Positions 5,426 to 52,431 are shown, numbered from the whole stretch's first letter. The stretch is 63,852 bases of DNA, filler included, from Reticulomyxa filosa (GCA_000512085.1; 20 parts of 20 records of this genome joined end to end with filler, not necessarily neighbours in it), one strand, 5' to 3'. The notes: generated from the letters alone by a model not told the origin. Program-made: numbers and translations.

Positions 5426-7476
5426 ATGTCCAACGTAGAAAACGTGGATGATAATACAAAACCAGATGTAAATGCAGACCAGGCCGAGGTGTCAGCCCCG
5501 GCAGCCACAACGGCAATAACTGTCAAGCCACCAACAGAAACTAAACAAAAAGCTAAAAAAGCAAAAAAGAAGCCTAAGATTGAAGCGAAGAAAAGAGTAG
5601 ACAAAACAACACCATCAACAACAGCAACAGCGACACCCAAAGTCGCAATTCCAATCCCAACAATTGCAGCACAAACAGAGAGAGCCGTACCAACAAAGAT
5701 AAAGACAAACGTGTCAGCAGTAGCAAAGAAACCTGAACTGAAACATGCACTCTTATCATACGCAGATACAAATGTAAATGGAAAATTGAAAGTAGCGAAA
5801 GAAAAGTCGAAAGTGACGGTGCACGTGTTTCAAGGAGTGGACTACCACCCGTCGGCGATAGCAAGCACGGCGCTGCATTGGAGTGACGACTACGGCGCAG
5901 TGGGACGAGAGAATGGGAACATTGAGGTGTGGGACCTGACGGGGTCGTACATTCAGCGCGTGATCCCCGGCGAGGGGCCGAACACAGCTAGGTGTGTATC
6001 GTTTGTGAAGACGAGACGTCCGGGCGAGCCTTTTCGTCTGCTGAGCGCCGGTCTGCACGGATGGGTGCATGACTGGGATATGGAGCGTCTGTCCATCCGA
6101 AGCAAAGTCGGGACGGAGGGTTATGCCGTTTGGTGTATGGCAGTCCAAGAGCTGGAGGGGGCCTTTTTGAACAAAAAAAAAAGTTGAAGTCGAACATAAA
6201 GGAGAGATTAATGGTAATGAAACAAATAGCAACAGCAATAGCAATGGCAATGGAAAGATAGAAGGACAACAAGGAAATTTCCAAAGCCAATATTACGATG
6301 GGTATACGGAAGAGATTGCCCGAATTGCCGTAGGCTGCGATGATGGAATAGTGCGAGTGTACAAGCTGTGCGACGAGATTGTGAATGCGAAGCGCAGACC
6401 CATGGAAGTTGTGTCGACGTTCCAGTACGAAGCGTCACTGGCAGCGACGACGCCAAAGAGCTTGCATCGAGGAGGGGGTCGCTGCTTAAGTGTGGCCTGG
6501 GGCGACGATTGCATTCGTCATATACTGTTTGCTGGGACTTCGGACGGACATATTGTCGTGTTTGATATGAATACAATGGCTGTGACCCAACGCATTGTAG
6601 TGGCGCCATCGCCCCTGGGTGGGGGAGGTCCTGGCAATCATCGTCATTACAATCATCATCGTAATAATAATAATAATTGGCATCATCATCATCATCAACA
6701 AAAGGGATCCATCACTACCAAACCCTTGATCTGGTCGCTCACGTGTCTGACCAAAGGTACCGAAATCGCGTGCTCCACGTCGCGCGGCACCGTCGACATT
6801 TACAGCGTAGCCTTTGGCACTTTGGTTCAGTCCTGTCATGTCGGCACCTCAGACATTGTCAGCTTGCAGTATGTGTGCAGAGAGGATCGTACACCTGCTC
6901 ACGACATGGATGAGGATTATCATTACTCTCAGAATCATTGGCATAATTATCATCGTCGTCGTTTTAGTGGTAATAATAGAAACAATAACAATAATAATAA
7001 TAATAAGAATAATAAGAATAATAAGAATATGAATGATCGACGAATAGTTGAAATATTGGTCGCAGGGTGCAATGATGGACGGGTAGTCGAACTGACCAGA
7101 AAAACCAATGAACATATACCCAACACGGAAGTGCTGATGGATTACGTGGTGAAAAGCGTGACACAGAGCACATTCATCGAGACAAGCCACCATCGGTATC
7201 ACACGCATGACGTGTCGACGGTGAGCGCCTCCTCCAAGTACGTGCTGTCGGGCGGGGTGGACTGTCAACTGATCATTTGCGACACGAGGGACTTTTGGAA
7301 GCATCACATTTGCTCGCCCCTGGCCATCGGATATCATAACAATAGCGACCGCAATACCGCCTTGTTGTCCTTGGTAAGCAGTGTTGATTACGTCAGTCAA
7401 GTTTTGCCTTTTGAAAGTCCAGTGTCTCGTCCAAGCAAAGAGAGTAATGTATCAGAACGGAACTTTTTCAATACTG

Positions 7477-7513
<37 letters not shown>

Positions 7514-9121
7514 TAATAATAATTCTGTTTGGCATCCCTTTGCTCATCTGCTCATGCATCAAAATGACACCTATTTGGACATATGGCACTTTTATTCTGT
7601 TTCGTCCGCTGTCGTCGAGCCGATCAAGCTGCTACACATCGACCCCGATTTCAAAGACGGTAACATCTTGTGCAGCGACATATCCGAAGATGGACGGTGG
7701 ATTGTGGTCGCCAATAGCCATTGCATCAAATTGTTCGATGTCCAAATCGACAAGAAGCCGCAGTCGCAAAATCAGTCGCTCAAAGGCATTGCTTTACGAA
7801 AGGTCTTTGAAACCACGCAGCGTGGCGCCACATGCGTGGCCTTTTCCAAAGATAGCACCTTCTTGTGGCTTGCTCCGACGTACTCGACGCGTCGTCACAA
7901 AACCAAGGCTGGCGCGAATGCGGTCGTAAACGACGAACCGGACGAGAACAAGAAGGAAAGTCCACTCCACAAAGGCAAAACGGTCGCCACGATCTTGGAC
8001 GAAAACGAAGACAACAACAGCACTATCCTCGTGCTCAAATTGAAACGAGACACGAATAGCGTGGATTGCTGGATCCACGCCTCCACGCACTTGGGCGAGT
8101 CGTTTGGCTATTACATGATCAGTGCGCTGTCCATCGCGGATTGTCCTGAATTCAACGAGCTCATCTGTGGAAAGTGTGCTGTTATCATTCCGACCATTGC
8201 CAAGGGTATGGCTATTGAGGTTTTTAGAAACGACACAGTAATAACTACAAGTACTACTACTACTACTACTACTACTATTGCTACTTTGAATAAGAATCTC
8301 CCACTGGGCATTTTTGAAGCCCCTCCAGGGTTGGATAAATGCAATGTCGCGTCTGTCGCATTTCGAGGCATCAAAAAAAAAAAATTGAGTGGTGTGTCAC
8401 ATATGCAAACAATGATATTAAAATATTTTTTAATGATTACGAAAAACCCATTGATATACAAACGACGGCTAATGGCAAGGACAAAAAAGATGATAAAAAA
8501 AATAATAATAATAATAATAATAATGATGATGATAATAATAATGATAAAAGTAAAAATAAGTATACGTCACTTAACTTCAGTGACTCATGGCAATTGCATC
8601 CCTGGTGTTCCAACAATCAAAACGTATGGAGGTCACACACTGAGCACTCCAAATTTGCCTTCCTCAATTTTACTTTCAATTTTCATGCTGCTCACAAAAT
8701 TGTGTTGGTTCGTCCCGAATACTTATTCACCGTTCCTTTGAACAAAGACATGGAACCACACCAACCCTATCGCGCCATCGGACTCAAGCGCAAATTCCCC
8801 GACTCCCCATTTCAAGAAAATCCCGGATTCAACTCCAAACGACTTAAGATTGATCAACTTGTGCCCTCTCCTTTTGACAAAACGTTCAAAGAGAGCGAAA
8901 TCCATAACATGGTCGACTTCAAGAGACGAAAGGCTCCACGTTCCAAAAACGGCATCAATGCTGCTCGCGATCCTTCGGCCCTCAAGGTGATCAGGAAATA
9001 TGATCCTTTGCTTATGGCCACTTATGTCGGTCCAGACACTTTATTGATTGTTCACCTACGTTGGAGCAAAGTTGCCAACAAATTCAAATCACCCATTTAC
9101 AGAAAACTGTATGGCACGTAA
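5426..9121 (+). CDS. UTP4: U3 snoRNP/SSU processome WD40 protein UTP4 (cirhin), intronless, with two apparent frameshifts in poly-A runs
   Basis: N-terminal VHVFQGVDYHPSAI..AVGRENGNIEVWD, RLLSAGLHG, HTHDV..SGGVD and C-terminal YDPLL..IYRKLYGT* match UTP4. The three ORFs join at A10 (6173-6182) and A12 (8373-8384). Confidence 0.85.
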
Positions 9122-33287: not shown

Positions 33288-34285
33288 TCACAAATCTTCA
33301 ATGGGTTCAGACATATGGTGATTATTATGTTCATCTTCATCAGGCTCATTAGCATCCTCAAGTCCAAGCATTTGGTCCTCTACATATGCAAAACAACCCG
33401 CAATTGTGTGTAATAAAAAATTGTGCTTACAAAAAAGAGGTTATTATAAACAAATAAGTGAATATATAAATAATACATGTGGTATATATTTAAATGTATG
33501 TACATTACAAAAAAAAAAAAAAAGAAAGACAAACCAAAATTGTCATTTTCATCAGGATAGTTGCCATCAGTATTTTCATTATCCACAGACATTTGCAAAT
33601 TAACATCATTTTCGTCATCAGCTTCCACAGCCAATAACGTGATAATAAACACCAAGTCACTATTCGGAGGTACCAGACCACCGGCGCCGTGAGTTCCATA
33701 CCCTAGCCGCGATGGTACCCACACTTTGGCTTTTTCTCCTTCGCTCATGGTAAGTAAGGCTTCTTCTAATCCCGGGACTTGACTGCTGACGCCCAATTGT
33801 GTGCGATGTTCGTAGTTGGCAATTTTTCGTGGTGTAAACTGCTCCCAGCGACCTTCGAATGTGATTGTTTATTTGTGCTTACTTTTATGTCACTATTTTA
33901 TATACATATATACATATATGTATATATATATATATTGACCAGTATCTCTGTGATGAATATAGCCCAAATATTTATATCGAACAAAAGAATAAGGCAATGG
34001 ATAAGTAGTGCCATTGCCAGGTTTTAATGTTCGAAAATCAATTCGACTGTAGTCGTCATGAGGAAAGGGGTCATCACTATCATCGTTTTCTTCGACATGT
34101 TCGTTGTCCTCATCTTGTTCATCGTGTTCATCATGTTCCTCCTCCTCCTCCTCTTCCTCTTCATTGTCGTCTCGGTTGGATTTCAGTCCCCCTTTGTCGC
34201 GTTTCGTCAGAGCCTTTGTATTTGCGGCGTCATCGGAAGACGGGACGGTAGTAGGTCCCCCAGGCGTGTCGTGATTTCCAACAAC
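33288..34285 (-). CDS. FKBP-type PPIase domain protein with acidic flanks, 5' partial
   Basis: Spliced exons give TLKPGNGTTYP..VRYKYLGYI..LGVSSQVPGLEEALLTMSEGEKAKVWVPSRLGYG..GGLVPPNSDLVFIITLL. Last exon ends TGA at 33290-33288. Confidence 0.85.
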
Positions 34286-34515: not shown

Positions 34516-35627
34516 ACAGACAATATCAACGTCGATGTGGAGTTGAACTTGGGACTATTAAGTCTCACTCCACGAAGTCAGCAATCGGCTGCACAACAAG
34601 ATGGAGGCACAAGGCCGGCACCCCTATTTGCGTCACCACCACAAATAAGGGCTAGTGGTCGAGCCGGGCCAGTGGCACAGCAAAAAATATCGGGTGCCTC
34701 AGCGTCGTCATCAACATCGTCGTCGTCGCAAGGGGCGCTGGCCGCAAATCCATTGGCACGTGCCATAGGCCAAGTAGCACCAGGACCATTAGGTGGATTG
34801 GTACTAACGGCCCCCTTTACGCCGTCGCCACAACGACAAAACGCAGACTCGCGCTGCGGTGGGAATGTAGGCCCTGCATCGGCAGAGGACCTCGATCCCG
34901 AGTTGAATATGAACCTGGGGCAACTACATATTGGGCCCCAGGAACGACAAAGCAGGGGAACGCTGCAACCACTCAATCCATCCACTCCACAAAGAGGGGC
35001 AGATGGCAGCTGTTGTCGCCACATCACGGCACGGGCGACCAATATCGATCGCCGACACAGCCATTGACGCCATCGCAGCAGTGGTTAAACGAGATACGTC
35101 GATCTCCCACACAGCCCCTAACCCACACACAACAACAATGGCTCCCCCTCAGGACCCGCGCCGAGTAAAACAACGGGCTAAATTTCCGGAGCAAGACAGA
35201 TCTACCACTGTCGTGCTCACGCCAGAGAAATATGTGGAATCACAGTCCCCTTCTCAACGCAAAATCGCACCCTTCCCCTTCACACAACAACAACAACAAC
35301 AACGCCAACAAAACCAACAGCAACAATGCCTACCACAACTGCCACAGTGGTCCCAACCACAACAACAACTACAATGGCAACAACAACAACAAGAACGAGA
35401 AAGACAAGAACGACAACGACAAGAACGATAAAGACAAGAACAAGAAAGACAAGAACGATAAAGACAAGAACAAGAAAGACAAGAACGACAACGACAAGAA
35501 CGACAACGACAAGAACGAGAAAGACAAGAACGAGAAAGACAACGACAACAACAACGACTATGGCAACAACAATGTATACCCATCACCTTTGACTCATTTT
35601 TATTATGTAGAGTCAATTGATGAGTGA
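34516..35627 (+). other. GC-richer, intronless low-complexity coding-like segment (overlapping ORFs; possible mobile-element or pseudogene fragment)
   Basis: Overlapping ORFs 34537-35067, 34931-35431 and 35232-35627; internal peptide repeat ELNLGLL/ELNMNLGQL; CAA/GAA/CGA-rich tract 35281-35570. Confidence 0.35.
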
Positions 35628-35688
35628 ACTTAAACACTCTAAATTTTATTTTATTTAAGTAGAAATATAGAGAGGACTTAGTATCCTC

Positions 35689-35760
35689 TAGGCCAATCTA
35701 GGCCAATATCAGCCACTTAGGCACAACATCGGCCACTTAGGCTTCACATCAGCCACTTAG
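35689..35760 (+). repeat. Tandem ~20-bp repeat (..ATC(A/G)GCCACTTAG x3) preceded by CTAGGCCAAT x2, running into the contig end
   Basis: aatatcagccacttag / gcacaacatcggccacttag / gcttcacatcagccacttag read directly. Confidence 0.8.
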
Positions 35761-40102: not shown

Positions 40103-40452
40103 CTTTTGTTTTTTCACATTATGCAACAAAAAAAAGACCCTTCCACATTCTATATGGCATTACTTAAATTTCCGGAAACTTTCGTTGCATGCTACTTGTG
40201 TGACAAATAAAAGCTTGAAGAAGTGAAAATGAGGCATTACTAATGTCTTGGTATTCGTGTTTATAATTAAAAAAAGATTGTACAATAAAATTTAAAACAA
40301 AAAATACGATTGGAAAAGTATTGTCACTTTCAGGGAGACGTCACTACAAGCAGGTTTTTTTAACAGAGCCATTTTTATACTTAAAAAAAAATTTAAGAAA
40401 AGTTTTGTGCAAGTATAATCAATAATCAAAGCAAAGGAACCAAACATCAAAG

Positions 40453-42643
40453 ATGAGTAGGGCTGAGGATGAAAAACAATATCAAACCGAACTGCTTTCA
40501 GTTCCATTTGAACTTCAGTCATGTTTTGACAAGAACTGGGTTTTGCAGTTAAACGAACCGGAACAAGTTAATAATTTTATTTGTACAGTTTGTAAGCAAG
40601 TGGCCAACAATCCGGTTGAGATCAATTGTCCCCAACATGAAGATTTAGACACAAAATTGATTGCAGGTGAGAATTGTTTGAAGCAATTCCTAGTCAAAAG
40701 CAACAATATGTGTCCAACTCAATCTCATGATGGCTGTAGTTATACTAAAAACAAATTGGCACAACAAAGCATTGAGGGTTTAACTGTGAAATGTCCAAGA
40801 CAATTCCAGCAATGTCTGAATGTATCTGGAAGAAATAAGGAAGGGCAATCATTTGAAAATATGACAGTGATATGCGACTTCAAAGGGCAAATAAAGGATT
40901 TGAATAATCATTTGAATGAAGCATGTGAGTTGGAATTGTCGGAATGTTGGTTTAAATTTTTTGGATGCAATCATATTTGTCCAAAATATAAATTAGAGAA
41001 TCACCTGATTTCAATGATGAAAGAGCATTTCGATTTAGTGATGAAAGCATCTGCAGTGATGCATCAAACCATCCAAAAACTACGAGTTAGATCTGTTTGT
41101 TTTTGTTTTTTTACTCGAATATTTACAAAATTATATAACCATATACATATATGTATATATGTATATTATTTGCACAAATAGGAAATAGCAGAGCAATTAC
41201 AACGGGAACATGAAAGACTAAAGTCAGTAACTCAAGTGAGCGAAAAGAGACAACAAGAAGCAATTTTAAAACTATTTAACGAGAATTATCTTTTGAAGCA
41301 ACAATTGCTGCAACAACAGCAACATTTACAAGCTTCTAATAATTACCAGGTATGCTGTACATAATGATTAACAAATATATACCTCATGACAACGCATATC
41401 TTCAATAGGAAACTCTTGTTCATCAGCTTGAAAAATTGAAACAAGAAATACAAAGTCAAGAAGGAATAATATTGGAAAAAGATAACAAAGATAACGAAGA
41501 AAAAGACGAAAAAGAAAGAGAAGGAGACAAAATGCAATTGAAGTCCGCAAACAAAAAATCAAATACTCCAAGTTTTGATGTATTTCGTTTGGCTTCATTA
41601 ATCAAAACTTTTAGAGGGCATTTCAGTTATGTATACAGTATTGATCATTCAACATCCGATGGTGGCCGATTTCTTTGTTCTGGATCAAATGATAAAACAG
41701 TTCGTGTATGGCATGTAGAAATCGCAAAACAAATGTATTCATTTAAAGAACATTTAGGTGCTGTAAATTGTGTAAAATTTTCACCATATCATTATCATCA
41801 TCATCATTATCGTAATGTCGTTTGTTCTTCATCAGCAGATCGAACTATTCGTTTTTGGAATATCGGTCATAAAAAATCATTCAAAGTATTAAATGGACAC
41901 AAGAACGATGTGAATGGTATTGCATTTTCATCATTTGATGGTGGTCGATATTTGTGCTCTGGGTCACATGACAATACAATTCGTTTATGGAATGTTGAAA
42001 CATTTAAATCATTACAAGTTCTAAATGGACATACAAATACTGTTTGGTGCGTGGCATTCTCTCCATTGCGAAATGGTAATAACAATGCTAGCAAAAGTGA
42101 GAATATTTTTGTGATTGGTGGTAATGGATATACTATTTGTTCTGGATCGTATGACAATACTATCCGTTTATGGGATGCTGAAACAACCAAACAATTGATG
42201 ATATTCGAAGGTCATCACAATGCAGTGCTTGATGTAAAATATGGAACAAGTGGACCAGGAGCTGCAAATACAATATTATCTGGATCTGCAGATGGAAGTA
42301 TTCGTTTATGGGACATCCGATCTAATCGACAAACTCAAGTGTTTAATGGGCATGGAAACTGGGTAACTTGTGTCGAATTTTCACCATTTACAAATAGTAG
42401 TGAATTTGGTAATTCAACTGTATTGTGTTCTGGCTCAATGGATAACACAATTCGTTTTTGGGACATTCGATCAAATAAAAGTGAACTGTATGTAATCAAA
42501 GGACATACCAAAGATGATTCAATATTATGTCTTAAATTTGTATCATTTAAATGGGAAGGGAATACAAAGGAAAGAAAGTACGATGGTGGCTGCTTCAAGT
42601 TGTATTATGGTTCTTACCTTGGCCTATTCACGTTTGGGGATAA
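40453..42643 (+). CDS. RING/TRAF-like zinc finger, coiled coil and WD40 protein of the expanded family; 3 exons
   Basis: Exons 40453-41085, 41182-41349 and 41409-42643. CxxC..CPQH..GENCL..CP..HDGC, CPRQF, CDFKG, CWFKFFGCNH, then ~6 WD repeats. One missing C at ~42623 restores the family terminus GPIHVWG* (TAA 42641-42643). Confidence 0.85.
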
Positions 42644-43329
42644 GATTTTTTTTTCAGATTTTTGAAATTTAAGAAAGTAGGACATAACTTTGTATTATCT
42701 GACTGAATCGATCAATAGAGTTCGTTTTTTTGCTGAAATTGGAGCGCTCTGAAAATATTTTTAAAATAATTTTTCGCATTTTTATTTAGTACTATAGTCG
42801 ATGTCTTGACTGCAAAATTTTGATATACTGAATGTAATTGTAGAGACGTCGCAAAACACAGAGAAAACAAAAAAACTTATTTTTGGAAAACGAGGAGTAA
42901 TTTTACATTTCATAAACCAATTATTTTGTCACAAGATATTGCACTCGTTTATCTATCTGATGAAACTTGTATACTGAGTGTATCATTTGAATAACCTTTC
43001 TTTTTTTTTGTTTCAGAATTGACTCCCATAATCGTAATGTTTTATCAATTCAATATTACTATCACTTAAAGAAAATTTCATATCCCATCCTTTTTGTTTG
43101 TATTAACATATCTCGTTATTTGTTCTCTTGTCTCCAAAAGTTTAGCAAAAAAAACCTTTAAATGAAAAAGGGTACAAAATTCAACGTTCGTATTTAATCT
43201 ACAAGAATACTTGCCATACTTCTGCTACAAATAAAAAATAAAATAATAACTACTATAACACTAAAATTGGTAAATCTCGCATTTTAGGAAGATTTTTTGC
43301 TTGTCAAACCAACGTGACCTGGTGAACTG

Positions 43330-44398
43330 ATGAATCAACAAAAAAAGAAAGAGGAAGAAATAAAAATAGTAATTAGAAATTGGCTTCAAACTCTGGAAGT
43401 GCAAATTGGATGGATTGACGATTTTGACAAAATTGTTGCCAAATATGTTAAAAATTTTTCTTTTTTCCAAGTTCAACTGAGAGTATTTTTTTGTTATTGT
43501 TACTTATCTAAAATAGTGCAAAGATTTTGAAGTGATAAAAGTTTTAGAAGGACATATGGGCGATGTAAATAGTGTAAGATTTTCACGAGATGGAAAGATG
43601 ATTGTTTCATCATCAAATGATGAAACAGTTCGAATATGGAATGTTGAGTCAGGTAAACAAATTCAAATCCTCAGAGGACATTCAGATTGGGTCAATGTTG
43701 CAGTATTTTCACCAAATGGAAAGACTGTTGCTTCATGTGCGGATGATAGAACAATTCGATTGTGGGATATAACATCAGGAAAAGAATTAAGGAAATTTGA
43801 AAAAAAAGCATACACAGTAAATTTAAATTTTTCCCCTGATGGTAAAACCATTGCGTCGGGTTCAACAGACGGAACAATACAATTATGGGATGTAAATAGT
43901 GAAAAAGAGATTAAAAAATTGTTAGGACATTCAGATACTGTACGAAGTGTACAATACTCATCAGATGGCCAAATGATTGTATCATCATCTAAAGATGATA
44001 CAATTTGTATATGGAATATAAAATCAGGCAAAAGGTTAAAAGAATTAAAAGGACATACGGATACTGTAGAAAATGTAAACTTTTCCCCAAATAATCAATT
44101 TATTGTTTCATGTTCATATGATAATACAATTCGAATATGGGATGTAAAATCAGGAAACCAATTGAAAATATTGAAAGGACATAAAAGTGATGTAAATGAT
44201 GTAAAATATTTTCCAGATGGTTCAACTATTGTGTCATGTTCAGATGATGAAACAATTTGTTTATGGGATGTAAACTCAGGACAAAAAATACAAGAATTAA
44301 AAGGATGTTCTAAGCGTATATTAGGAATTGATATTTCACCAAATGGCAATATAATAGCATCAGGCTCTAGAGATCGTATAATTCGAATTTGGGGATAA
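43330..44398 (+). CDS. WD40 beta-propeller (7 repeats) with short EEEI..W..GWI.DFDKIV leader; 2 exons
   Basis: Exons 43330-43446 and 43517-44398; seven GH...WD/WN repeats ending IRIWG*. Confidence 0.9.
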
Positions 44399-44683
44399 AA
44401 ATAAATAAAAAAATCTAATTTGATTATTTTATGAATTGATAACTTTTTGTTAGTTGTTTAAAAAAGAAAAAAGAAAAAAAATGAAGATATTGATGTTATA
44501 TCTATTTAATTGAAATAANNNNNNNNNNNNNNNNNNNNNNNNNNNNNNNNNNNNNNNNNNNNTTAATTAATTAANNNNNNNNNNNNNNNNNNNNNNNNNN
44601 NNNNNNNNNNNNNNNNNNCTAACGTTTTTTTTTTTTTTTTTTTTTAAAATAAAAAAAAAATGAATTTTAAAAAAAATGGTCAG

Positions 44684-47600
44684 CATTGGGACCAAATGCT
44701 TGTTGTATCCACGGAGATGTGCGATTTCCAACATGGCATCGTCTGTTGTTGGTGCAGTTTGAGAACGCATTGCGGCGATGGAACTTGAGCGTGGCAATAC
44801 CGTATTGGAACTGGGCCAACTCATCGCTTGGTGGTTTCCCGGATTTGGTGACACGTGTAAACTTCACCGACCCAGAGACGCAAATTACGTATAAAAACCC
44901 GTGGTGGAACTATCGCATTCCAGATTACACGGTGCAACGTGGGGAAGCGTTTAACCCAAACAACACGTGCAAATACGTTTGTCGAAATCCTCAGCCAGAA
45001 CTATTCGAATACACACGCCCAAACAATTTCCCTGTGTCATTTTACAGACAACTGCTGCAATCGTATGAGTATGATAACTGGATCGTTTTCGACTTTATGT
45101 TTAGTTTATTTAAACAAAAAAAAAAAAAAAAACAACTCATAAATAATAAACTGTAATGCATTTATTATACATGTACTAAATGTTATTTACTTTACGTATA
45201 TATATATGTGTACATGTATATATTTTTTGAATCTTCTCTCTCATTCTTAATATGTGATTTTAATTGTTTAACCATAAATACAATTTTTTTTTTTAAAAAA
45301 AAAAAAAAAGGTTTGAAATACCACACAACAACGTACACAACTTGATTGGTGCGACAATCTTGGACTTACTGACGGCGACCTTTGATCCCTTGTTTATGCT
45401 GCACCACATGGGCGTGGAGAGATACTTTTTGATTTGGCAACAACTGACCGAGTATCGCAACATAAGCTACCGTCCAAACTCAACACAAATCAACGAGTAC
45501 TTAGGGTGCTTTGTGGAAAAGTTCCACATGGGCGATCGTCTGATGCCATTCAATGGGAGCAGTGGGCAAAACTACGACCCGACCACCAGCAAGTTCGGGT
45601 ATAGTTCGTTCGACACAATGAACTGGGATCAAATGCATTACTCTTACAATCCCTATCCGGAAGCTTTCTTTGGGCCTTTCAAAGACGTTGCGGAGTTGGC
45701 CAATTTCTTGCATGCCCAAAAGTATGAGTCGGAGAGGTTATACTTGGGTTGGTACTTACCCGATTTGCCGTTTACGTATCGCATCCACTACGCTGCAAAG
45801 AAATACGGTACCAACACTGTTATTGTTAATGGATCGTTTGCCAAACTCGGCTCGTCCCCGACCGTGGCAGGTCTAAACAAGTTTTTATTCCGTGTCGACA
45901 TCACCGAGGCCATGAACTCATCCGGACTTGCCTTGGACAACCTCGTCGAAGTTGACGTCTTTGTTACCAGCGACAAAGACAGCAACACACCTGCTGTCAT
46001 CATTCCTCACCCGGCCATCATTTATCGCTCCGATGGACAAGAGGTCTTCCGTCTCTTTTGGGGACCTGAGTACTTCAATATCAGTACTGGCGAAGACATT
46101 CGAATCATCTTAGGTTCTCTTTGTGCATGCTCATGTTTTTCCAAAAAAAAAAAAAAAAAAGAAGGGGAAGTTCAAAACATTCTTTGATGCAAGTTATACG
46201 TAGCATGAAGTTTTTTTTTTAAAAAAACCAGTAACAATAGTATTGCTAAATTAATAAATAAATTGAATATTTTTTTTAAATAGGAACCGAGGTAACGCGC
46301 ACCTCACAAACCAGTCAAGGCCAACAAGGCCTACAACTGATCAAAAAAACTGAAAAACAGACTTCGGTGATTTTGGGCAACCAATTCAGTAACGTGTTGC
46401 GCGTCGACCAAAACGAACTAGTGTTCACACAAACCACTATCGGAAACGCTGTCAATGTGTCGGTGTCCACACTAGTATTCAACAGCAACGTTGTGACTCA
46501 GTCGTTTTACAGTGACGAAGAGCAGGTCGACTACGGCCCAACCATCCTCACGCAAGAGGGGCCAAACATTTTCCAAATCGCCGACTTGAAAACGCAGATC
46601 CACATTTATGCCGATCAAATCGCTTCGCAGGGTTTCCATGGGACTATTTTCACCAACTCTACTGCGCAATTCAGAAGCACCGAACTTGGCCACGTAATCA
46701 AAAAAAAAAAGTGTTTCAAAAACGTAAAGATTCAACCCCTTTTTTTTTTTTTTTTAAAAAAAAAAAAACAACAATGAAATAGGCGGTAGTGCCTCTCGAC
46801 AGAGAGTTGCTAAAGTATGACCACGAGCTGTACGGAAACGTGTTTATATCGTATAATTTGGAAGAGGTGGACTTTGTATCGTGCGGGAACTCGTCATTGA
46901 TTGGGTGTCTGGTGAATGATGAGACGAGTTGGAACGATTGTAATGTGGGCGATCAGTGCTTTGGTAGCTTTCCGATTATTGACAAAGCAGGGATCCGGTA
47001 CTTTGTGGCCAACAACAAAACTCTGTGCGAAATGGGCATGAAGATTGCGTTTAATGCGCAATATGTAACGGCAGTATCGAACGCGACCAGCACGGCTTGT
47101 AAGAATCTCGGCATTCCACACAACGCACGATGGACTAGTCATGTGATTGACTCTGCAGGCGCAAACGTGCAGTTTGGCCTATCGCTCGGTGGGAAACAAT
47201 GTGAGGCGTCGTATTGGATTGAGGGCCCTGTCGATAAAGGCTGGTTCGCTGTTGCATTGTTTGGTCCTTATCATTTTATTGGGAGCAGCGCCACGCAAAT
47301 GCAAGGCTTGTCCATTGTTGCCACAAACACCGGCAACTCGTGGTCGTTTGCGCTGTACCTTTTGCAAGGATCTGGACAACATAGCATCAGTGAACTTCTC
47401 ATTTGCGATCAACAGGTCGTCAATGGTCGTATCCGCGCCAATTGCTCCAGCACACTGATCCCAGAACGAACTGTACCTATTTTCGCTGACAAATTCTTGG
47501 ACTACATGCCATTAAACTTCCCGAAACTTGAACCTGATGTTTCTTACTACTATCTTACTGCGTGGAGAAATTATTCTGATCCTGGTTTGTTTGTTTTTTT

Positions 47601-47814
47601 TGCCAAAGGGGAGGGCATTCGGTATGAAATAAAATTTTGTTGGATGCTTTAATGTTGTTGCAAAAACTATATAGGGTTCAGTCAGAGACATGATAAATAC
47701 TTTATTGGAGGCACTTATCAATTCACTTCGGAAATATCCGGCGCTGTCTCCTTCGTTGCTCAGCCAAAACTTTTGGTTTTTATTCTGTGCTTGTTTTGGT
47801 GGGCTATCTTCTAG
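44684..47814 (+). CDS. Type-3 copper protein (molluscan hemocyanin/tyrosinase-like unit) plus cupredoxin-like, DOMON-like and GPI-signal-like tail; 5' partial, at least 5 exons
   Basis: Exons 44684-45098, 45311-46113, 46284-46693, 46783-47584 and 47675-47814. CuA ACCIHG..FPTWHRLLLVQFENAL..IPYWNW; CuB FEIPHNNVH..FDPLFMLHH..VERYFLIWQ; beta-sandwich GSFAKLG..LFRVDITEAM..PHPAII; RYFVANNKTLCEMGMKI; GWFAVA..QMQG..QRHD; terminus SEISGAVSFVAQPKLLVFILCLFWWAIF*. Confidence 0.85.
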
Positions 47815-49404
47815 AACAAACATAGCGATGATGAGGGAAAGGGAAAAGGATGGAGAAAATGGAGGAGGGAAAGGGGAAATAATGCATATAACACCTTCAT
47901 TTTGTGGTTTACGGCAAGTATACTTGTACATTTGCTTTTTGTAAGTTCCTTTTTTATTGTTTGATATCATTCAATTACTTTTTTTGACCCAAAAACACAA
48001 TGCAACATAACTTGCAATTTTTGTTTGCATTTCGCCAGCACGGACTATGTTCCCTCAGAAAGGAGTTTGATTTTTGCAAGAAGAAACAAAAAGTGTGGAT
48101 GGACATCAATGACATCCGAAATGTACGAAATAATACATTAGGTTGCAAAGAAAACTGAACGTATAAAACATATCTTATGATGNNNNNNNNNNNNNNNNNN
48201 NNNNNNNNNNNNNNNNNNNNNNNNNNTTAATTAATTAANNNNNNNNNNNNNNNNNNNNNNNNNNNNNNNNNNNNNNNNNNNNAACAAAAGTTATATTTTT
48301 TATCAATAATTCTTCAGAAATATAGTCTTACAGAATTATTTCATCACTCAAATATGATTTTTAAATTTGTAAATTTTTCTGTTTGAGATTTTATCTTTTG
48401 ATAACATATAACTGACAAAAGTATTTACAAAACAGAGCAATATCGAATTGTATTTCATAGAGAATAAATAAAGAACACAAAAAGTTTATTTATGAAAATT
48501 GATTGAATGAATATTTTTTTTTTACTGATTGATATCAAATTGTCAGATATTGATTAATATGATGTACAAAATTTAGTTTCGCCTTTCAAAGCAGCAAAAA
48601 GAATAGTTAAAATATTGCAAATGCGAACCAGTTTAAAAAAAAACGGGGAAATGGAGGCGTATGTATTGAAAAAGAGTTTGGACTTATTACAGATGGATAC
48701 CTTATCCTTAACAATGCGTTACTCGTTATTGAGAGACAGGCATTTAGCCTTGGAAAAGTATTGGCTCGTTCGACATGGCAAAGGCAAAGCGAAAACCAAG
48801 AAACTAGGTTGTCACACACCATTTTGCTGTCACTATTGCAGCAGCCAGAGTGACAAACACAACATTAGCGAACAACTGAGACAAGCAAAGATCTCCGTAA
48901 ACACAAGACTAGATGCATATACCAATATCAACAATATTTCTATTCTCAGCACAGACACCAAAGATAGCAAGAATAATAATCCGAGTGAAACGATGAACAA
49001 AGAGCCAGTGTAATTATTGTAGCAGCTGTTGGATATAACTGTATTACAAAACAGTCACTATTTACCAAGTATTTCTACGAAAATGGCTTTGACTGCTATA
49101 CTATCTATCATTACACATCCACTACGTCTTAATATACATTACAATAATCATTGTCATTATACTTATTAATGCAGCTGCAACGACCTCTTTACTTATCAAT
49201 TGAAATGCTAACACAGTCATACGTTGCCATGAATTTGGAATATTTTATTTTATCAACTCACTATTGTTCAATATTTACTGCAATCCAAGAGAAAAAGAAC
49301 AATCNNNNNNNNNNNNNNNNNNNNNNNNNNNNNNNNNNNNNNNNNNNNTTAATTAATTAANNNNNNNNNNNNNNNNNNNNNNNNNNNNNNNNNNNNNNNN
49401 NNNN

Positions 49405-50513: not shown

Positions 50514-51099
50514 ATATAGATGGTAATGATAATAAAAGCAAGAAATATTTGATTGTGAAAACATATTATTGAATTTTTAGAAGAAGAAGAAGAAAAATTT
50601 TATCAAAAAAATTATGATAATTCAAGGAAAATCAGGATCAGGAAAAAGTTTATTTTGTAGACATTTAGAAGAAATATTATGGAATAAATATAAATCTAAT
50701 TCACAAAATTATATTCCTATTTATATTTCATTACCAAAAATTTATCATAAAGAAAATGAAAAAGATATTATTTTACAATTTTTACAAAGTAAAAATATTA
50801 CTAAAGAAACTATAAATTCAATTCGTGAAAAAATATCATTTATATTTATTATGGATGGATTTGATGAAATATATGATTTTTATCGTAAAAATAATCATGA
50901 ACAATATTTTTATAATCGTTTTAATTTAAATCAATGGAATGCAAAAATAATTATTACATGTAGAAGTAATGTATTAAATGATGAAGATATTAATAATAGT
51001 TTAATTAATATAAATAAAAATCAAAATATAATAACATCAATGATATATTTATGGCCATTTACAAAACAACAAATGCATAATTATATAGAAAAATTTGTA

Positions 51100-51138
<39 letters not shown>

Positions 51139-52431
51139 TGGACATCACAAGAATATGAAACAACTTTAAATAATTTTCCAAATTTACAAAAAATGATAGA
51201 AGAACCATTTCTTCTTAGACTTATTTTAACTGTATTACCATCATTAGTAAAACAATATGGTATAGGAAGTAAAATTTCAAAAACACAAATATATGAAGTA
51301 TTTAATAATCAATGGATTGATACTCATTGTCAAGATATTATTTCTAAATTATCAGAATTACGTATTCAAATAAATATTAATAAAATTAAATTAAAATTAA
51401 AACAATATTGTCTTAATTTAGGATTTGATATGTTTTATCAAGGAAATCAAGTTGCAATTGAATCAGAATATCAATATCAAAATAATGATGAAATTTTAAA
51501 TAAATTAGATCCAATAATAGAAAAAGAAAATAAAAATAATGAATATGAAAAAATAGATATAAAAATAATAGATAATAAAGAAGAAAAAGAAGAAGATATT
51601 TGGGAAAAATATTTTAATGCTGATAGTATTGCAAAATATGTATTAAGAAGAATAGGTGAAAATAAATATCAATTTTTACATAAATCTTGTCAAGAATATT
51701 ATGCTGCACAAAAAATTATATATGATATTATTTCTTGGAAACCTAATCTTATTAATATTAATTATATTGATAATCAACAATTTCAACAACAATTTGAAAT
51801 ATATGTATCAAAATTATTACTTAATTATAAATTATTAAATGAAGAAATTGGAATTATTCAATTTATTGCAGATAGAATTCATGATACAAACTCAATATTT
51901 ATAAATTTAAAATCAAGATTATTTCGAATTATTGAATCATCTAAAAATAATCCAAAAGTATCTATTGCAGCATCAAATGCAGCTACTATACTTAATATAG
52001 CAAAAGTTAGTTTAAGTAATAAAAATTGGGATAAAATAAATATACCACATGCTATTTTAGATTATGCTTTTTTGGAAGGAACTAGTTTTAAAGAAGCTAA
52101 TTTAGATTATGTAAGATTTTTTCATTCATTCCTTAATTTTGCAGATTTTACAAATGCATCTATTAATCAAATAAATTTTGGTGAATATGGTTATCTTAAA
52201 GGACATTCAAAAATAGTTACTTTTGCTCAATTTTCACCTGATGGTTCCAAAATTGCATCAAGTTCATATGATAAAACTATTCGATTATGGGATGTATTAT
52301 CTGGAAAACAAATTCAAATTTTTAAAGGACATTCATCAATTGTTACTTCAGTTCAATTTTCACATAATGGTTCTAGACTTGTTTCAAGTTCTTATGATAA
52401 AACTATTCGAATATGGGATATATTATCTGGT
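50514..52431 (+). CDS. NACHT NTPase, pentapeptide repeats and WD40 (NLR-like), internal fragment
   Basis: Walker A GKSGSGKS, Walker B FIMDGFDE, IITCR, EPFLL, YQFLHKSCQEYYAA, AASNAATILN, pentapeptides (ILDYAFLEGTSFKEANLDY), then GHS..WD repeats. Confidence 0.92.

Follow-up and report, generated by a model that had tools for sequence, protein, structure and literature searches.

Results

The locus and its gene model

The window, by which we mean the whole stretch of Reticulomyxa filosa DNA that was analysed (63,852 nucleotides), consists of short unrelated contigs strung together with 100-nt spacers of N, and the genes flanking the contig described here are therefore not its genomic context. 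This contig carries a gene for a multidomain protein from a foraminiferan, entered in the protein database as ETO23759.1 (P0001) and labelled 'tyrosinase, partial [Reticulomyxa filosa]'. Its five exons (44684-45098, 45311-46113, 46284-46693, 46783-47584 and 47675-47814, here A to E), separated by four GT-AG introns, join into 855 codons with zero internal stops; GC content is 17-32% in the introns versus 41-48% in the exons. The features are listed below with positions counted from the first base of the window.

44619..48182, strand not given: contig of 3564 bp bearing the putative copper–heme fusion gene (NCBI contig record for P0001)
44624..44683, + strand: likely upstream intron (GT at 44624, AG at 44683)
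44684..45098, + strand: exon A, CuA half, with Cys 44704 and His 44710 (Cys-x-x-His, candidate thioether) and His 44737 (Pfam Tyrosinase, E 3e-16)
45311..46113, + strand: exon B, CuB site, with Glu 45315, His 45324, Asn 45327, His 45336 and His 45405 (Pfam Tyrosinase, E 1.8e-12)
about 45705-46031, + strand: hemocyanin beta-sandwich in exon B; its LG motif includes Leu 45846 (Haemocyan_bet_s above cut-off, E 3e-7)
46038-46687, + strand: domain of about 160 residues, probably beta-rich (alignments; kept in the paralog P0002, only partly in the Bolivina protein P0003)
46284..46693, + strand: exon C, most of the ~160-residue domain (alignments)
46688..47064, + strand: cupredoxin fold of the phytocyanin type, lacking a type-1 copper site (profile E value and homolog model)
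47119..47733, + strand: likely DOMON-fold domain, exons D and E (Atlas, hhalign and structure matches to the Bolivina model)
47299-47301, + strand: candidate heme Met (alignment; invariant in three of three proteins)
47689-47691, + strand: candidate heme His, in exon E (alignment; kept in both of the two proteins that reach it)
47675..47814, + strand: exon E, with the candidate heme His, the last strand, a predicted omega site at Ser 47737 (25 residues from the end), a hydrophobic tail and a TAG stop; absent from the NCBI model

Because the contig begins just ahead of what is likely a further intron, the start codon, the signal peptide and the first CuA histidine lie beyond its edge; the homolog from Bolivina argentea extends about 130 residues further at the N-terminus than the window model, and the first CuA histidine is among them. 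An earlier reading of the sequence alone had proposed that the copper unit continues in frame across the junctions 46693/46783 and 47584/47675, and this holds up: both are GT-AG (phase 0 and phase 1, respectively) and keep the frame, as do the upstream junctions 45098/45311 and 46113/46284. The homolog alignments agree, with no insertion in the Bolivina protein at the first junction and none in the paralog at the third, while the annotation of the paralog enters the intron at the same places as the second and fourth. The last exon, read in a frame that the ORF track had left unreported and ending in a hydrophobic tail, is likewise borne out: when the seven possible acceptors after 47584 and simple read-through were scored against the Bolivina sequence, the acceptor at 47675 came first of the eight (24.5), followed by 16.5 for the next and 9.0 for read-through. 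The motifs quoted in the sequence-only reading were all found in their places. The NCBI model, in comparison, starts downstream of the CuA histidines; at three junctions it includes residues from read-through, and at its end it continues into the last intron in place of exon E. On the evidence of these alignments the proposed junctions are better than those of the NCBI model, and the public gene model, which lacked the CuA histidines, the candidate heme histidine and the predicted anchor, can be corrected.

The remaining contigs carry ordinary genes for a member of the DJ-1/PfpI family (1704-2114), a long WD40 protein (6171-8738) and an FKBP-type isomerase (33383-33868), along with genes of the TRAF-zinc-finger and WD40 kinds and a NACHT-pentapeptide-WD40 gene (40426-44398 and 50581-52431), whose GC3 of 0.04-0.31 is very low against most other genes of the window. 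One contig of 1245 bp (34516-35760; 49% GC) carries several reading frames, spread over both strands, that stay open for about 170-180 codons, and is probably low-complexity coding sequence. Contamination as the source of the copper gene was considered and rejected on its poly-T/poly-A introns, a paralog in the same species, a homolog in another foraminiferan and a GC3 compatible with the window (0.55, versus 0.35-0.55 in most of its other long ORFs and 0.04-0.21 in the WD40/NACHT genes).

A small family with one domain order

A full HMMER scan of 1.84 billion representative proteins with exon D as query returned three proteins, one of them the window gene itself. The second (P0002, ETO24211.1) is a Reticulomyxa paralog with 45% identity over exon D and a partial model of 604 aa, which reads into introns at the places of those in the window gene and ends at the corresponding last donor; a last exon absent from the annotation is probable here too. 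The third (P0003) is the Bolivina argentea protein, taken from EukProt (865 aa; 26% identity over exon D, E 7e-6), which appears complete, from a hydrophobic N-terminus through an entire copper unit and matching C-terminal domains to a stalk rich in Thr and Glu and a hydrophobic end. Its identity with the window model is 42% over 250 core residues and 24% in the C-terminal half (381 columns), and it has about 45 additional residues with three cysteines preceding the copper core. Searches with word-index tools returned only the window gene and its paralog; as they missed the known Bolivina relative, they carry little information on the range of the family.

From the N-terminus, the domains are a two-copper unit like that of mollusc hemocyanins, a hemocyanin beta-sandwich, a domain of about 160 residues without a family, a phytocyanin fold, a DOMON fold and a GPI-like tail, and the full-length protein of the second foraminiferan genus has the same order. 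For the ~160-residue domain (exon C) we found no match in Pfam, none in the Atlas and none to the protein's other domains. We regard the whole as a real, conserved and apparently undescribed architecture assembled from known parts.

The two-copper unit

Five copper histidines are present in the window gene, the first being off the contig, and all six in the Bolivina protein, with Pfam Tyrosinase above its cut-off. Against solved structures, exon A scored 57.5 bits with the best mollusc hemocyanin unit and 32 with the best tyrosinase; over about 320 continuous residues of the Bolivina protein the corresponding scores were 96 and 46 bits. No solved tyrosinase comes nearly as close to the copper unit of the window gene (44686-46031, upstream of the coordinates flagged in the sequence-only reading) as mollusc hemocyanin units do, and the unit comes with a hemocyanin beta-sandwich. 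Both marks of the hemocyanin core, the Cys-x-x-His and the Haemocyan_bet_s sandwich, occur in the window gene. The seven to eight tandem units of a soluble hemocyanin multimer are not seen: the full-length Bolivina protein has one unit and a hydrophobic tail, and the 5' end of the window gene lies off the contig.

The beta-sandwich and the leucine of its LG motif, which we take to be the residue that blocks the copper site, are kept in both Reticulomyxa paralogs. In the Bolivina protein Pfam detected no beta-sandwich and the hemocyanin match ends near residue ~390-400, so that the conserved part is the catalytic core; around residues ~383-470 this homolog appears to be without most of the sandwich lid. 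The waterkeeper Glu and the Asn at HisB1+1, whose roles in type-3 copper enzymes have been described (PMC11608171), are both present in the window gene. Mollusc hemocyanins carry the identical pair, and therefore it does not discriminate between an enzyme and an oxygen carrier.

Pattern scans gave 4 loci from 19 pattern matches in metagenomes and 2 from 17 in genomes: the motifs in five of these loci (L001-L005) are those of ordinary bacterial-type tyrosinases without Cys-x-x-His, and L006 showed none. Among plasmids, 8 of 72,556 records matched, at 24-31% identity and in the core region only. PF14830 was not found in the 301 genomes searched, among which no positive control matched either.

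The cupredoxin

Profiles built from the foraminiferan sequences matched cucumber basic protein with E values of 4e-4 and 9e-4, while matches of single sequences were below significance (E 0.6; Cu_bind_like at E 0.15 in the Bolivina protein). A structure model of Bolivina residues 541-830, with a mean pLDDT of 52.7, was made from an alignment of four rows, one of which, the 25-residue row of exon E, is misaligned. Its first domain matched umecyanin (Z 9.4, rmsd 2.7, 97 residues aligned) and mavicyanin (Z 9.0), followed by ephrins (Z 6.0-6.5) and by KLH1-h, the unit with the FU-h tail (Z 4.7). Cys 46939 and Cys 47026 correspond to the disulfide of the phytocyanin family. At the type-1 ligand positions, which we placed by assuming the numbering of 2cbp (cucumber basic protein), the window protein has Ile, Ala, Leu and Met; the His, Cys and His are lost in all three proteins, and the Met is lost in two and kept in one. 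Of what makes a blue-copper phytocyanin, then, the conserved disulfide and the fold, the latter taken from the Bolivina model, are found, and the type-1 ligands are missing.

As judged from these profiles and the model, the domain is a phytocyanin fold without copper ligands, in agreement with the initial description of a cupredoxin-type domain lacking the full ligand set. The likeness then drawn to the FU-h tail survives only as a weak fold match: identity with that tail was rejected on the Z of 4.7 for KLH1-h against 9.4 for umecyanin, and the domain is not positioned like an FU-h tail, because the ~160-residue domain separates it from the beta-sandwich. Without type-1 ligands the cupredoxin cannot serve as an electron relay, and a copper-to-heme wire through it is unlikely. 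The redox chain running through the domains is thus not supported in the form first envisaged; sites of the tyrosinase type, moreover, draw their electrons from the substrate.

The DOMON domain and its candidate heme ligands

The DOMON-like segment with candidate Met and His ligands that had been seen in the sequence is upheld by three moderate lines of evidence that agree. In the Atlas, DOMON and DUF568 clusters came first (0.89-0.88, where values below 0.9 are a lead only), with 185 shared features and DOMON annotated on 47% of the members of the top cluster. With hhalign, the foraminiferan alignment matched a profile of six bacterial DOMONs, drawn from 6 of 301 genomes, at probability 57 and E 1e-4, scoring 34.1 over 54 columns; none of 60 column shuffles (maximum 18.9) or 364 block shuffles (maximum 24.9) reached this score, and other beta-rich regions of the protein gave 10.9-15.9. 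The second domain of the Bolivina model matched the DOMON of dopamine beta-hydroxylase (Z 7.8, rmsd 3.7, 140 residues aligned), the cytochromes of CDH (7.2) and PDH (7.1) and ethylbenzene dehydrogenase (6.2), with superoxide dismutase beneath them at 6.1 and lower, all at Z below 8, a level which the tool calls common.

Several searches were negative for this domain. Foldseek gave nothing at E <= 0.001, though some of the same entries ranked high; Pfam found no DOMON in any of the three proteins, and the window protein alone scored -0.7 bits on the bacterial DOMON profile; a sequence search of the PDB with the DOMON segment returned only two antibody domains (E 0.4-1.1). The global mode of hhalign gave no match, a mixed alignment (A4) misplaced the C-terminus, and a single-sequence fold of exon D reached a pLDDT of 33.

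The candidate Met aligns with the Met of the DOMON profile, and the candidate His aligns with its His in a weak alignment (probability 2). The spacing between the two is 100 and 95 residues in the foraminiferan proteins versus 85-91 in five of the six bacterial DOMONs, and is 93 in the fly protein CG8399 (PMC10691727). A further His at 47380-47382, in a G-x-H motif, is invariant in all three proteins and may serve instead as a ligand to heme or a metal. Taken together, the profile and model matches point to a likely DOMON fold with Met and His at the positions of heme ligands.

Anchor, glycosylation and surface location

A GPI-anchored protein has a signal peptide and, towards its C-terminus, an omega site, a spacer and a hydrophobic end without charges. 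By a simple rule of our own on the omega site and hydrophobic tail, distinct from PredGPI, the window model and the Bolivina protein both pass, each having small residues 22-25 positions before its end and a hydrophobic tail without charged residues, and the read-through version does not; 22 of the 915 possible terminal segments of the window pass, the gene's own included. The Bolivina protein also begins with what is, by eye, a hydrophobic signal-like peptide. From these features a GPI anchor is the likeliest reading of the tail, with a terminal membrane helix as the other possibility, and the predicted tail and signal-like peptide accord with the surface location originally suggested. The many N-x-S/T sequons that had been remarked on are a real excess in the window model (17, versus a mean of 8.0 in 5000 shuffles; p 0.0014) and in the paralog (p 0.005), and there is none in the Bolivina protein (12 versus 10.7; p 0.39).

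Discussion

Proposed function

We give about an even chance to the reading that this protein is a phenoloxidase tethered to the cell surface, in which a membrane-near DOMON, likely binding heme and resembling plant AIR12, would act as an indirect reductant. The protein would be secreted, glycosylated and held by a GPI anchor on the outer face of the cell, where its distal two-copper unit would bind oxygen and oxidise tyrosine or catechol groups to quinones, and these in turn would cross-link extracellular material such as an adhesive, the cell coat or a cyst wall. Such cross-linking is one of three possible roles put forward in the sequence-only reading, beside oxygen capture and prey oxidation. 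In Reticulomyxa the beta-sandwich would cover the copper site until it is opened, and Bolivina appears to be without most of this lid. The ~160-residue domain and the copper-less phytocyanin would form a stalk and not a wire. The heme of the DOMON could be reduced by ascorbate or by a membrane cytochrome b561, as in AIR12, a GPI-anchored heme DOMON that is reported to be reduced by ascorbate (PMC10784552; bioRxiv 10.1101/2024.12.25.630297), and once reduced it might turn quinone back into catechol or return resting met-copper to the reduced state. Such a step would be relevant to monophenols that cannot regenerate the catechol themselves, and some monophenols do need a reductant for turnover (PMC11608171). 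The Tuphoxins of tunicates, the closest relatives without a respiratory role, also have a hemocyanin-related unit with a copper-less cupredoxin and have been proposed as tanning enzymes (PMC9395347). What surprises most is that a protist should have a unit like those of mollusc hemocyanins fused to a DOMON of the heme type. The proposal is weakest on the binding of heme and on whether the heme is coupled to the copper site at all.

Alternative readings

If the protein is a surface phenoloxidase, its DOMON could still serve as no more than a stalk, or as a module binding sugars or catechols, with heme absent or unrelated to the copper site. Tyrosinases need no external electrons for catechols, and in the Bolivina model the Met and His regions, which would have to face one pocket, both have pLDDT below 50. 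The top structure match of this domain, moreover, is the DOMON of dopamine beta-hydroxylase, which is reported to bind no heme, yet DOMONs without heme are also reported to lack the Met/His pair (PMC10691727). Here the Met is kept in three of three proteins and the His in two of two, despite only 26% identity over exon D, and we consider an uninvolved DOMON rather unlikely.

A tethered single hemocyanin unit could instead capture or buffer oxygen at the surface, with the heme domain repairing met-copper. The nearest solved relatives are indeed mollusc hemocyanin units (96 versus 46 bits), both Reticulomyxa paralogs keep the beta-sandwich and the LG-motif leucine, and Bolivina argentea inhabits hypoxic sediment (PMC8153729). 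It is this low-oxygen species, however, that appears to be without the lid, and one unit with no multimer-forming repeat, spread as a surface monolayer, would presumably store little oxygen, which makes an oxygen binder improbable in our view.

Electrons might also pass inside the protein from the heme to the two-copper site, by fold-back or via the cupredoxin, in line with the redox chain that the sequence-only reading thought possible. Both redox modules are found in one polypeptide in two genera, cytochrome domains of the CDH type are among the top structure matches, and the cytochrome domain of CDH passes electrons to the copper of LPMO. Against this, the cupredoxin has no type-1 site in any of the three proteins, and about 400 residues in two or three domains stand between heme and copper site; we hold such a chain to be very improbable.

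That the last exon or the anchor has been misread, the true end being transmembrane or secreted, or the gene a decayed copy, is highly doubtful, for although tails of the GPI type also arise from T-rich DNA elsewhere in the window (21 of 914 other segments) and the NCBI model terminates differently, the acceptor at 47675 scores highest of the eight options when compared with Bolivina and brings back the aligned His, the Bolivina protein likewise has an omega-like site and then a hydrophobic tail at its end, and 855 codons are open.

Significance

Beyond the surface phenoloxidase that we prefer lies a bolder claim, which we think unlikely: that foraminifera hold a true member of the mollusc hemocyanin lineage with a built-in cytochrome, whose Met/His heme re-reduces the two-copper site. 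If true, this would be a type-3 copper monooxygenase or a self-repairing oxygen binder driven by electrons from the membrane, and the hemocyanin unit with its beta-sandwich either predates animals or crossed between animals and Rhizaria. Of the two halves of the protein, the one with the copper unit and beta-sandwich may matter more. Surveys of type-3 copper proteins, as far as their accounts go, place the hemocyanin-type unit with molluscs, brachiopods and tunicates (PMC3730353, PMC3658974, PMC9395347), and the main texts of PMC3730353 and PMC3658974 do not use the word 'Rhizaria'. A conserved hemocyanin-type unit in foraminifera bears directly on the origin of mollusc hemocyanin, and the protein becomes a candidate for an enzyme that hardens the cell coats or adhesives of foraminifera. 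Foraminifera have been treated as relying on diffusion for oxygen (PMC11025005), and the available text of PMC8153729 has no occurrence of hemocyanin, tyrosinase or copper. In literature judged mostly from abstracts we found no report of a hemocyanin-like protein from a foraminiferan or of a fusion between tyrosinase and DOMON, though the sequence tables of the three type-3 copper surveys could list a rhizarian entry; nor did we find there any protein in which a type-3 copper unit shares its chain with a heme-type DOMON and a lipid anchor.

Comparison with known systems

One close likeness is to the functional unit of molluscan hemocyanin, FU-h in particular (KLH1-h, PDB 3qjo/3l6w), which shares the two-copper core with its Cys-x-x-His, the beta-sandwich and, later in the chain, a copper-less cupredoxin (PMC4041863). 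Molluscan hemocyanins, however, have seven to eight tandem units where the foraminiferan protein has one, and the extra ~160-residue domain, the DOMON and the GPI-like tail are found only in the latter, whose host is a protist and whose cupredoxin is phytocyanin-like (Z 9.4 to umecyanin, versus 4.7 to the unit with the FU-h tail). The tunicate Tuphoxins, compared here by their published description only, share a secreted hemocyanin-related tyrosinase domain and a cupredoxin-like domain without copper ligands (PMC9395347).

Plant AIR12, the DOMONs of CYBDOMs and the cytochromes of CDH and PDH share the DOMON fold and the Met/His pair, and AIR12 is also described as GPI-anchored and outward-facing. 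AIR12 stands alone, whereas in CYBDOMs the DOMON is joined to cytochrome b561 and in CDH the partner is a flavin domain; in the literature examined, as far as its accounts go, no type-3 copper unit is reported as a fusion partner of any of them. With phytocyanins (cucumber basic protein, umecyanin, stellacyanin) and the ectodomains of ephrins the foraminiferan protein shares a fold and a disulfide; its type-1 ligands are lost, as they are in ephrins and, from the description available, in the FU-h tail (PMC9395347), and here the domain is an internal one. Membrane tyrosinases of the gamma subclass, finally, are also type-3 copper proteins held at a membrane, but as described they have a Cys-rich region, a transmembrane helix and no Cys-His bond (PMC3658974), whereas the foraminiferan protein joins a core of the alpha/hemocyanin type to a predicted GPI tail.
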